A stretch of DNA of 64,000 nucleotides from Marispirochaeta sp. (GTDB lineage Bacteria > Spirochaetota > Spirochaetia > JC444 > Marispirochaetaceae): positions 384,001-448,000 of the forward strand of contig CAXXFF010000003.1 in NCBI GenBank assembly GCA_963676835.2, read 5' to 3'. Each line of letters opens with the position of its first letter. Within the stretch, counting starts at the first letter, position 1. This document shows positions 14,948-25,066 of this stretch, one piece after another. The translations under genes were made by a program, and so were the position numbers. A model generated the notes under the pieces. The model was not told where the DNA came from. It did not search any database and worked only from the letters and a program-made list of their open reading frames with translations.

Positions 14948-15112
14948 CCGGGCGTCACCCGGCCACATGCTCACGCATGCGGCCGGGTCGGGCCTTGCGG
15001 GGCTCCGGCCCCTGCACCTAAATCCTATATCAGCTATTTTTATATACGAGGGCTCTACAGTAAGGATTTAGGTGCAGGGTCTGCCTCCGGCACCCCTCCA
15101 GTCCCTGACGCG
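14948..15112. repeat. GC-rich multi-hairpin intergenic (REP-like) element containing a 17-bp inverted-repeat module
   Basis: ACCCGGCC...GGCCGGGT hairpin, then CCCTGCACCTAAATCCT (15010-15026) and AGGATTTAGGTGCAGGG (15063-15079). Confidence 0.6.
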
Positions 15113-15246
15113 AAGGCAAGTGTAGAGCTTCTTACATGCGATTTCCCCTGTACAGCCTTCACTCACCTGCATTGCAGTTATTTTACCGGTGCACCGGACT
15201 TTACGAGAACCTCAGCAGTTCCCATCGGCTCCCGCAGGATTACCGC

Positions 15247-21408: not shown

Positions 21409-22011
21409 AATAATTACCATTTTACGGTCACCATCGGGGTGTACCCCTCCGGCTTCCTTTGTTCAAGCTACTCACAGGTCAGCAAAGCCGCCTGTTCGTA
21501 TTGAACGTTTAGTGCGTCTATCCTAAAAGGATAAACTATTTTGTTTTTGTCTTTCGACTATAGAGCACATACTCAGTAACTGTTTAATCAGCTCTGAAAA
21601 ACGGTCGGGTCCCCCGACCGGCTTTTCATTCGTCGGGCAGAGGGTAGTCGATGGAGTACTCTCCAGCGACGACCGTAAAAGGAGAAGAAGCACACAATAA
21701 TATGGTCAAGCCTCACGACTAATTAGTACTGGTCAGCTGAACATGTTACCATGCTTAGACCGCCAGCCTATCAACCAGATCTTCTCTCTGGTGTCTTCAG
21801 GGACCTTAAAGGCCCTGGGATGTCTCATCTCGAGGGGGGCTTCCCACTTAGATGCCTTCAGCGGTTATCCCGACCGAACTTGGCTACCCAGCACTTACCC
21901 TTGGCAGGATAACTGGTACACCAGAGGTTCGTCCATTCCGGTCCTCTCGTACTAAGAACAGATCCTCTCAAACATCCAACGCCTGTGGCAGATAGGGACC
22001 GAACTGTCTCG

Positions 22012-22076
<65 letters not shown>

Positions 22077-22077
22077 C

Positions 22078-22117
<40 letters not shown>

Positions 22118-22323
22118 TTTGCCGTCGATATGAACTCTTGGGCAAAATCAGCCTGTTATCCCCGGAGTACCTTTTGTCCGTTAAGTGACGGCCCTTCCAC
22201 TCAGAACCGCCAGATCACTAAGACCTACTTTCGTACCTGCTCGACATGTACGTCTCGCAGTCAAGCAACCTTGTGCCTTTGCACTCGTACATTGATTTCC
22301 AACCAATGCGAGGTTACCTTCGC

Positions 22324-22365
<42 letters not shown>

Positions 22366-22636
22366 CGCCCACCTGACATTGTCCACGTACCCGCTTCAGG
22401 GCACCCGTTAGAAATATAACTTGCAAAGGGAGGTATTTCACCAACGACTCTGCGCAACCTAGCGACCACGCTTCTTAGTCTCCCTCCTATCCTACACATT
22501 ACAAGCCACATTTCAATGCCAAGCTACAGTAAAGGTTCACGGGGTCTTTCCGTCTAACCACAGGTAATCGGCATCTTCACCGATACTTCAATTTCACCGG
22601 GTTTCACGTTGAGACAGCGTTCAAGTCGTTACACCA

Positions 22637-22710
<74 letters not shown>

Positions 22711-23406
22711 TGGGGCTTCAATTCGACGCTCTCACATCTCCTCTTAACCTTCCAGCACCGGGCAGGTGTCAGTCCCTATACTTCATCTTGCGATTTAGCA
22801 GAGACCTGTGTTTTTGGTAAACAGTCGCTTGAACCTTTTCTCTGCAACCCCTAACAAACTTTAACATCCATCGGGGGCCACACTTCTCCCTAAGTTACGT
22901 GTGTATTTTGCCGAGTTCCTTAACGTGAATTCTCCCGAGCGCCTTAGAATACTCATCCCGCCTACCTGTGTCGGTTTGCGGTACGGTCCCTTACAGCATA
23001 TCTTTAGAAGCTATTTCTCGGCACCTTGATCCCACCAGCTTCGCTCGTCCGTAGACTCACTCGTCTTAACACCTCGTCTCAAACTGCGGATTTACCTGCA
23101 GCTCTCAACAACTAAGTGCTTAAACCGGGACAACCATCGCCCGGCCTGGCTTCGCCTAATGCGTCGCTCCATCAGTCCTGTAAGAGGTACGGGAATATTA
23201 ACCCGTTTCCCATCGACTACGCCTTTCGGCCTCGCCTTAGGGGCCGACTAACCCTTGGGCAGATTACCTTAACCCTGGAATCCTTAGGCTTTCGGCGGAC
23301 AGGGATCTCACCTGTCTTTTCGTTACTCATGCCTGCATTCTCTCTTCCATCCCCTCCAGCATCCCTTTCAGGACACCTTCAACAGTACATGGAATGCTCC
23401 TCTACC

Positions 23407-23708
23407 CCCTGCACCTATTTAAAATCACCAGTTATTAGACTATTCGATATTCGTTCGAGCATTTGACGTCTTGCTCGTCCGTCTTTTAATCGCTTTTCAC
23501 GTTTTTGCGCATCAGATTTGCTTAAGTATGCTTCATAATACACTAAATGCCATTCGTCATTTTTTGTGTACGGGCTTAGTTTCCCTTCATGCTCACTCAT
23601 TCGTCTTTTAAGATCACTTGTATAACCAATATACACATGCTCTTTTTGACTCTTCAGCACATAAACGTAATACATAATCTAACCTCGTAATTTTAAATAG
23701 GTGCAGGG
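23407..23708 (-). mobile_element. 23S intervening sequence (helix 45 position) with 19-bp terminal inverted repeats, encoding a GIY-YIG protein
   Basis: CCCTGCACCTATTTAAAAT and ATTTTAAATAGGTGCAGGG lie between the conserved ...GCTCCTCTACC and CCGTAGCTTCGGT...TTAGCCCCG tracts. Confidence 0.88.
23415..23675 (-). CDS. standalone GIY-YIG nuclease (UPF0213/SLX1-like), 86 aa
   Basis: YYVYVL...YIGYTSDLKRRMSEH...LVYYEAY..KSDA.KRE..LK; GAGG RBS upstream; same sense as the rRNA. Confidence 0.9.
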   Translation of the reverse strand: MYYVYVLKSQKEHVYIGYTSDLKRRMSEHEGKLSPYTKNDEWHLVYYEAYLSKSDAQKREKRLKDGRARRQMLERISNSLITGDFK

Positions 23709-23758
23709 CCGTAGCTTCGGTACTATGCTTAGCCCCGTTACATTGTCGGCGCACAACG

Positions 23759-23793
<35 letters not shown>

Positions 23794-23794
23794 T

Positions 23795-23827
<33 letters not shown>

Positions 23828-24323
23828 TCGCCGTTGCACTTCCTTTTCCACTCGAGCATAGTTCTGAGACCTTAGCTGACGGTCTGGGCTGTTTCCCTCT
23901 TGACCACGAATCTTGTCACCCGTAGTCTGACTCCCGCGCATCATTTAACCGGCATTCGGAGTTTGACTGAGTTTGGTACCCGGTGAAGGGCCCTAGCCCA
24001 ATCAGTGCTCTACCTCCGGCAAACTAACGCGAGGCTAGCCCTAAAGCTATTTCGAGGAGTGCCAGCTATCTCCGAGTTTGATTAGCCTTTCACTCCTATC
24101 CACACCTCATCCCTGCCTTTTTCAACAGACTAGGGTTCGGTCCTCCACTTTGTGTTACCAAAGCTTCAACCTGGACATGGATAGATCACTCGGCTTCGGG
24201 TCTACCGCATGCTACTAAATCGCCCTATTCAGACTCGGTTTCCCTTCGGCTTCGGTACTTCTATACCTTAACCTCGCAACATACGGTAACTCGCAGGCTC
24301 ATTCTACAAAAGGCACGCCATCA

Positions 24324-24424
24324 CCCGGCACCTAAATCCCCCAAATAAGCTCTTCGTTTTCGCCTACTTGGCTTGTTTAGCTCTCTAAACACCAAGATTC
24401 TCATCTCAGGATTTAGGTGCCGGG
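24324..24424 (-). other. 23S intervening sequence (helix 25 position), 101 bp, no ORF
   Basis: 16-bp IR CCCGGCACCTAAATCC / GGATTTAGGTGCCGGG between CAAAAGGCACGCCATCA and GACCGCTTGTAGG. Confidence 0.85.
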
Positions 24425-25036
24425 CTTTGACCGCTTGTAGGTCCACGGTTTCAGGTTCTATTTCACTCCCCTCCCGGGGTGCTTTTCACCGTTCCCTCAC
24501 GGTACTATTCGCTATCGGTAGCTGTCTCGTATTTAGCCTTGGAAGGTGGTCCTCCCGGATTCAAACAGGATTTCTCGTGTCCCGTCCTACTCAGGTACGC
24601 GCTCAGCGCTCACTCATGTTTCGACTACGGGGCTTTCACCCTCTTTGACCGGCTTTTCCAATACCGTTCGTCTACACTTATAAGTCACCTTTATGCACGC
24701 CCTACAACCCCAGTGCGCATGCGTACTGGTTTGGGCTATATCCCGTTCGCTCGCCGCTACTCAGGATATCTCTTTTGATTTCTTTTCCTCTGGGTACTTA
24801 GATGGTTCAGTTCCCCAGGTATTGCTCATATATGCTATTTTATTCACATATATGTGACAGAGAGTCTACTCTGCCGGGTTACCCCATTCGGTGATCCAGG
24901 GTTCAATAGATGTTTGCTCCTACCCCTGGCTTTTCGCAGCTTACCACGACCTTCTTCGCCGGACAGCTCCAAGGCATCCTCCGTGGACCCTTATTCGCTT
25001 GACCATATTAGTTTGTGCTCCTTCTTTGGCGGTTGC

Positions 25037-25066
25037 CCCTGCACTAAATTATTATTTAGTGCAGGG
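25037..25066. repeat. minimal hairpin of the same IR family, in the ITS
   Basis: CCCTGCACTAAAT-tatt-ATTTAGTGCAGGG. Confidence 0.75.

Follow-up and report, generated by a model that had tools for sequence, protein, structure and literature searches.

A hairpin cassette with a minimal GIY-YIG nuclease gene in 23S rRNA helix 45 of Marispirochaeta sp., probably a selfish element

Overview

In one of its 23S rRNA genes, Marispirochaeta sp. carries a 302-nt hairpin cassette in place of helix 45, found in a 64,000-nt stretch of genomic DNA that was analyzed as a whole (the window). With moderate confidence, we regard it as a selfish element of about 300 nt, in which two arms with a common outer motif lie tight around a minimal GIY-YIG gene, and which is tolerated in the manner of intervening sequences (IVSs) and probably moved by its own nuclease. 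The anatomy of the cassette, the polymorphism between filled and empty sites, the unrelated targets, the shared end motif, the duplications beside non-rRNA copies, purifying selection and the existence of ORF-less copies are directly established. How IVSs arise and spread is a long-standing question, and to our knowledge the cargo known from them has no catalytic function. The features of the window are as follows:

21702..25004, minus strand: host 23S rRNA gene, in the tRNA-Ile operon
23407..23708, minus strand: hairpin cassette of 302 nt that takes the place of 23S helix 45 (E. coli about 1165-1184)
23690..23708, minus strand: 5' arm (rRNA sense), perfect over 19 bp, with the family end motif CCCTGCACC at its start
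23682..23686, minus strand: Shine-Dalgarno-like GAGGT, paired in the predicted stem
23415..23675, minus strand: ORF of a predicted 86-aa minimal GIY-YIG nuclease, with Y5, Y15, G17, R25, H29 and E60 conserved
23407..23425, minus strand: 3' arm (rRNA sense), with the TAG stop codon inside
24324..24424, minus strand: ORF-less hairpin of 101 nt that sits in 23S helix 25 (E. coli about 543) of each of the four operons and carries the same end motif (CCCGGCACC)
25037..25066, minus strand: hairpin of 30 nt that has these ends too and lies in the spacer immediately before this 23S gene; it is missing in the three other spacers
15010..15079, unstranded: ORF-less hairpin of 70 nt with the shared ends, seated in the loop of a structured repeat that is dispersed; the genome has 4 similar copies, and genome G002 a short form without the hairpin

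The insert in helix 45

Alignment to E. coli rrlB and the Rfam alignment place the insert at helix 1164-1185, and the insert and its ORF lie on the minus strand, in rRNA sense, because the 23S gene itself does. The arms form a perfect inverted repeat (IR) over 19 bp, which reaches 25 nt at 92%, and the predicted fold is a 22 + 12 bp stem (z-score -8.3) equaled in stability by none of 100 shuffled sequences. GC content is 37% in the insert and 51.5% in the remainder of the 23S gene. GAGGT, 6 nt upstream of the ATG, is complementary to the 16S 3' end CACCTCCTTT, and just 41 nt of the insert remain outside the ORF; no model of an intron or other RNA family matched the insert at E values up to 10. 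The original prediction of an AT-rich, 302-nt helix-45 insert with a perfect 19-bp inverted repeat, containing an 86-aa GIY-YIG ORF in rRNA sense with its own GAGG ribosome-binding site (RBS) and its stop codon within a repeat arm, and leaving no room for a ribozyme core, agrees with these coordinates, alignments and model searches.

This is a real IVS-like insert: it replaces the loop of a variable helix, has complementary borders and is patchily distributed among operons and relatives. The helix-45 locus itself has no flanking duplication. A Logan contig of run X2 (359 nt, zero differences) covers the insert and both junctions with flanks of 28-29 nt, below the 31-nt bridging rule; X2 is possibly the source sample, and the contig counts as weak, non-independent read support. 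Run X1 contains solely a joint across the helix-45 site, and the contigs of RNA runs X4 and X6 leave the ORF uncovered, which says nothing on its expression.

According to the available part of the source, the Coxiella IVS is cut from pre-23S rRNA by RNase III without ligation, and its RNA is rapidly degraded and apparently not translated (PMC4990558). The further suggestion that the present cassette is excised as a ready-made mRNA is doubtful, both because of this short-lived IVS RNA and because the bases from GAGGU through to the start codon are paired in the predicted stem of the insert.

Operons and related genomes

The genome studied here (G000; 4.4 Mb) has four rRNA operons, among which filled and empty helix-45 alleles, envisaged in the original prediction, coexist: one of the four rrl copies is filled, and the other three have a short 20-nt hairpin with flanks identical to those of the filled copy. 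The filled operon is the only one with tRNA-Ile, the three empty operons having tRNA-Ala. Its spacer measures 544 nt, compared with 800 nt for the tRNA-Ala spacers, and seven positions between nt 329 and 605 set its 23S copy apart from the three others. G000 encodes RNase III and has two reverse transcriptase (RT) genes. FlaA genes number three in G000 and none in 14 control genomes, which indicates a spirochaete. A lone RAYT-like Y1_Tnp gene (L242, G000 C2:781279-781614) has no flanking palindromes.

In 60 related genomes, matches to the flanks were found in 22 and to the insert in none; helix 45 is short in all 21 other loci that were readable with anchors (30 fetched), and the replaced hairpin differs between congeners. 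Congener G001 has an empty helix 45 and an intact, IR-bounded cassette of 305 nt in helix 25, whose 84-aa protein is identical to that of G000 at 40 of 81 positions (49%); each of these two genomes has one coding copy. Of the copies fetched from G003, one bears an ORF-less insert in helix 25 and another has none there, and both G003 and G005 possess motif hairpins and no close GIY-YIG gene. Close homologues occur in at least 2 of 401 genomes of the class, a lower bound because rRNA operons are often unassembled. A further 19 weaker matches, in 17 genomes of the class, were rejected as family members, as they resemble other GIY-YIG genes and have no rRNA or tRNA neighbors. The element originally assigned to helix 45 is thus correctly located, but it is not exclusive to that helix, given the G001 cassette in helix 25 and the many sites of the family.

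The encoded protein

The ORF matches the PF01541 profile at E 1.2e-14, in line with its original assignment. Across 118 aligned homologues, H29, R59, E60 and K64 are invariant and Y5, Y15, G17 and R25 are at least 90% conserved, and the proteins share the clade signature WxLVYYEAY. The roles of the catalytic Tyr, Arg, His and Glu residues are established; this residue set, the domain match and the modeled fold together argue for a GIY-YIG nuclease. The predicted structure is of high confidence, with a pLDDT of 87.5, and its nearest solved structures are UPF0213 proteins, HIGLE and Slx1, with I-TevI ranking behind; the closest matches in sequence and fold are 1zg2, 1ywl, 7wme and 6seh. Both comparisons favor the minimal UPF0213/SLX1-like type over an I-TevI-like one, as had been proposed. 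Neither the domain search nor the predicted structure revealed a DNA-binding domain in addition to the catalytic core, the TIGR01453 model of group I intron endonucleases scored 15 bits against a cut-off of 56, and in the search for transposases of known classes only GIY-YIG-type domains exceeded the cut-offs. Purifying selection is indicated by pN/pS below 1 in 71 of 71 close homologue pairs (median 0.23), many of which share members.

Homologous loci

The locus set was drawn from two sources, genomes (the best 80 of 256 loci) and metagenomes (the best 80 of at least 599 loci); removal of 17 that were at least 90% identical reduced these 160 to 143 non-redundant loci, to which site labels were assigned by rules. 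Among the matches listed, 56 of the 143 lie in rRNA genes (42 in 23S and 14 in 16S) and 4 in RNase P RNA, another 28 are located at the 5' ends of tRNAs, and 55 have other locations, with seven sites in 23S (E. coli about 270, 540-553, 1164-1185, 1710, 1870, 2210 and 2790) and three or four in 16S; the same cassette layout recurs at 54 further rRNA loci, and the rRNA-adjacent ORFs comprise 57 in sense and 0 in antisense orientation. Three other cassettes occupy helix 45 (L140, L142, L145). The named hosts are mostly CPR bacteria, with Omnitrophota, Planctomycetota, Desulfobacteraceae and others also represented. Searches of phage collections gave no match, those of plasmid collections one weak match, and those of viral collections four matches over 29 residues only; none of these is a close relative.

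An IR score of at least 11 was reached, among the matches listed, by 101 of the 143 loci, whereas 5 of 226 ORFs taken as controls reached it and, among swapped pairs, 27 of 1500; such strong repeats flank 54 of 56 rRNA loci and 2 of 28 tRNA loci and are absent in 42 of the 143. The association of homologues with similar inverted repeats, on which the original prediction depended, is therefore present, and it takes the form of the terminal repeats by which IS elements and MITEs are recognized. IR-wrapped cassettes have a median span of 305 nt, and their stop codon overlaps the right arm in 84 of 101 cases; therefore gene and arms constitute one unit. In 76 of the 100 cassettes folded (of 101 IR loci), the start region and RBS are at least 60% paired.

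The end motif CCN[ACG]CAC[CT] occurs in 51 of the 101 IR loci (background 0.5%) and a looser version in 70 (background 2.4%), about half of the IR loci being without the strict form. The tests for the motif and for duplications were confined to those 70 of the 101 IR loci that have a loose-motif anchor. Next to the arms, 15 of 31 non-rRNA loci have duplications of 4-11 nt (null 57/930), cases that are not independent because they are confined to a few related clades, and 1 of 39 rRNA or RNase P loci has one. The lengths of the duplications vary (4, 5, 9 and 11 nt), unlike those left by one transposase.

In a quick, weakly resolved tree (13 of 141 branches starred), the four helix-45 proteins are not grouped (4 changes for 4 rows) and have their near kin at other sites. 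Site labels require 54 changes, compared with 93.3 when shuffled, a partial clustering that fits some inheritance or homing per site. Neither a fixed conserved target nor a site-linked protein clade, the marks of intron homing, was found in this family.

GIY-YIG cassettes also lie just upstream of the conserved GAGGAAAGTC of RNase P RNA (L039, L040, L043, L045, L108, L174, L177), and judging from this position they should split RNase P RNA near its 5' end. At the gathering score, Rfam found none of the five RNase P-motif loci among 20 scanned; L040 was recovered by searching past the insert, as a truncated match (E 1.4e-28) whose 91.4 bits are below the gathering score of 100. Such inserts mask RNase P genes from Rfam at the usual threshold. 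An IR-less subclass is situated directly 5' of tRNA genes (L052, L076, L088, L096, L109 and others) and frequently has a partial copy of that tRNA, up to 57 nt long, ahead of it.

ORF-less hairpins with the same ends

G000 contains 17 hairpins starting with the end motif, namely the cassette and 16 ORF-less ones, compared with 0-8 (median 0) for 30 permuted motifs; the motif used in this count was chosen after inspection of the data, and the hairpins represent about eight contexts, because four of the 17 are at helix 25 and six are in one dispersed repeat. The ORF-less hairpins occupy variable hairpin tips in the operon spacer, a leader and the loop of the dispersed repeat, and in the leader, whose downstream gene we take from its start to be rplK, congeners have different hairpins. 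The arms of the 101-nt helix-25 insert resemble those of the helix-45 cassette, and it is through the arms that ORF-less and coding copies are linked, because a comparison of the ORF-less interiors with the coding cassettes revealed no resemblance. Since the helix-25 insert is present in all four operons, every 23S rRNA of the organism may be split there. G001, G002, G003 and G005 each have a single occurrence of the CCNGCTAC arm variant of G001, so that a comparison of arm variants between genomes gave no specific match to the coding copy.

Motif hairpins occur in the loops of a dispersed, GC-rich, highly structured repeat (window 14950-15130; G000 C3:496030, C3:951417 and C1:632907), which is also present in G002 and G003; Rfam at the gathering score gave no match to the copy within the window. 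Another dispersed repeat, at least 150 nt long, has an identical 29-nt motif hairpin at its center (G000 C1:401427, C2:1419363, C2:1687161, C2:1930792, C3:876271 and C4:203775).

Proposed mechanism and alternative explanations

In 23S rRNA, the arms would lengthen the host helix to a stem of ~34 bp, from which RNase III, by analogy with known IVSs, would cut the cassette without ligation and leave the 23S rRNA split; the cassette would be harmless there because the extended stem would be removed. Most probably, the element spreads because the protein, a predicted structure-selective DNA nuclease of the SLX1/HIGLE-like kind, nicks the base of extruded hairpins, both its own motif-bearing cruciform and those of its targets, and host repair then joins element to target, either in place of a variable hairpin's tip or with a short duplication left behind. 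Sense insertion into highly transcribed stable-RNA genes could supply a promoter, and pairing of the RBS in the finished stem would keep expression low, while the ORF-less hairpins may be deletion derivatives, scars or copies moved in trans. A broader proposition, which we put forward tentatively and rate at somewhat less than an even chance, is an autonomous class of ~300-nt mobile elements, whose sole enzyme is a bare GIY-YIG nuclease recognizing its own hairpin ends, and which insert at hairpin tips (rRNA, RNase P RNA, leaders, tRNA 5' ends) in many bacterial phyla and mobilize ORF-less copies. If true, many classical ORF-less IVSs would gain an origin and a means of spread.

The gene might instead be a passenger, retained for example for DNA repair, in REP-like or IVS-like hairpins that another enzyme or recombination spreads. 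Motif hairpins in G003 and G005, where a close GIY-YIG gene is missing, the Y1_Tnp gene of G000 and the resemblance of the protein to housekeeping UPF0213 are compatible with such an arrangement, but the overlap of stop codon and right arm in 84 of 101 cassettes makes gene and arms one unit, and a close homologue in 2 of 401 class genomes (a lower bound) is unlike a housekeeping gene. RAYT was rejected as the mobilizer: the fetched locus around Y1_Tnp contains no motif, 1 of the 160 homologous loci has a match to Y1_Tnp, and the palindromes expected to flank a RAYT are missing. Because this link is absent, the passive-cargo reading is weakened, and we consider it unlikely. Homing of a site-specific IVS, in which cleavage of the empty helix-45 allele by the nuclease would let gene conversion copy the insert, is distinctly unlikely as well: although the catalytic residues are intact, three further cassettes share helix 45 and the tree clusters to some extent by site, the genome retains three empty alleles whose flanks are identical, the replaced hairpin is not alike between congeners, helix-45 proteins are scattered with near kin elsewhere, and the catalytic core has no extra DNA-binding domain. 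The CPR cases were likewise judged to be outside homing in the available part of the report on them (PMC11270868).

An RNA intermediate is conceivable too, with a host reverse transcriptase turning the excised hairpin RNA back into DNA at a GIY-YIG nick, or with the protein cutting its own RNA stem. Reverse copying at a nick made by a GIY-YIG protein is the logic of Penelope-like retroelements, and the strict sense orientation (57 versus 0), the variable duplication lengths, the two RT genes of G000 and the preference for abundant stable RNAs as targets would suit it. The need for a host promoter explains the orientation equally, however, neither RT is linked to the cassette and, as far as the available text goes, the Coxiella IVS RNA is short-lived (PMC4990558); this route seems improbable to us. 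Least credible, to the point of being nearly negligible, is a spliced intron or an assembly artefact: read support consists of one short contig, but intron models are unmatched at E values as high as 10, the ORF leaves 41 nt of the insert free, and the layout recurs at 54 other rRNA loci among the matches listed.

The genus lends itself to testing, since at both of the classical IVS sites it combines filled, empty and ORF-less states. The idea that IVSs are footprints of a nuclease-driven hairpin element becomes directly testable with an 86-residue protein, the filled and empty alleles, the helix-25 cassette of a congener and ORF-less copies being available in one genus.

Comparison with known systems

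In IS/MITE pairs and REP-RAYT systems, a coding element coexists with short ORF-less copies that have common ends, and short duplications flank the insertions. The present cassette differs from these in having no DDE or HUH enzyme, in its length of about 300 nt and in replacing an rRNA hairpin tip without duplication. With the group I intron homing endonucleases typified by I-TevI it shares the catalytic domain family, but it is without ribozyme, linker, DNA-binding domain and fixed target. UPF0213/YhbQ, SLX1 and HIGLE nucleases, the closest matches in sequence and fold, are host genes, whereas the present clade has its own WxLVYYEAY signature and is IR-wrapped.

The ORF-bearing 23S IVSs of Coxiella and Leptospira, which encode the four-helix-bundle protein S23p, resemble the cassette in their location at helix 45 (and 25), complementary borders, patchy occurrence among operons and similar size, as far as the available part of the source describes them (PMC4990558). 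Here, in contrast, the cargo is a predicted nuclease under purifying selection, and the cassette is also found at many non-rRNA sites. That coding IVSs carry four-helix-bundle proteins, as the original prediction stated, holds for Coxiella and Leptospira, but this is not the sole cargo, GIY-YIG ORFs being known from CPR bacteria (PMC11270868, available in part).

In the open-licence PMC and bioRxiv literature, searches brought up no paper that deals with shared ends, with duplications, with ORF-less partners or with RNase P and tRNA as targets. Inserts within CPR bacterial rRNA genes were reportedly described by Brown et al. in 2015. In the accessible portion of a later study, GIY-YIG ORFs are recorded in non-intron rRNA inserts of CPR bacteria, 15 in 16S and 15 in 23S, which are sparse, lie at several poorly conserved sites and are not homing-like (Tsurumaki et al. 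2024, PMC11270868); the bare phenomenon of a GIY-YIG ORF in an rRNA insert is therefore already in print. Those inserts are like the present one in being unlike either intron class and in their scattered sites, and the difference, judged against that same portion (PMC11270868), lies in the shared ends, duplications, ORF-less partners and RNase P and tRNA targets described here for the family. A further difference is the host, which in the present case is a 4.4-Mb, four-operon, FlaA-bearing bacterium of spirochaete type in which filled and empty alleles occur together.
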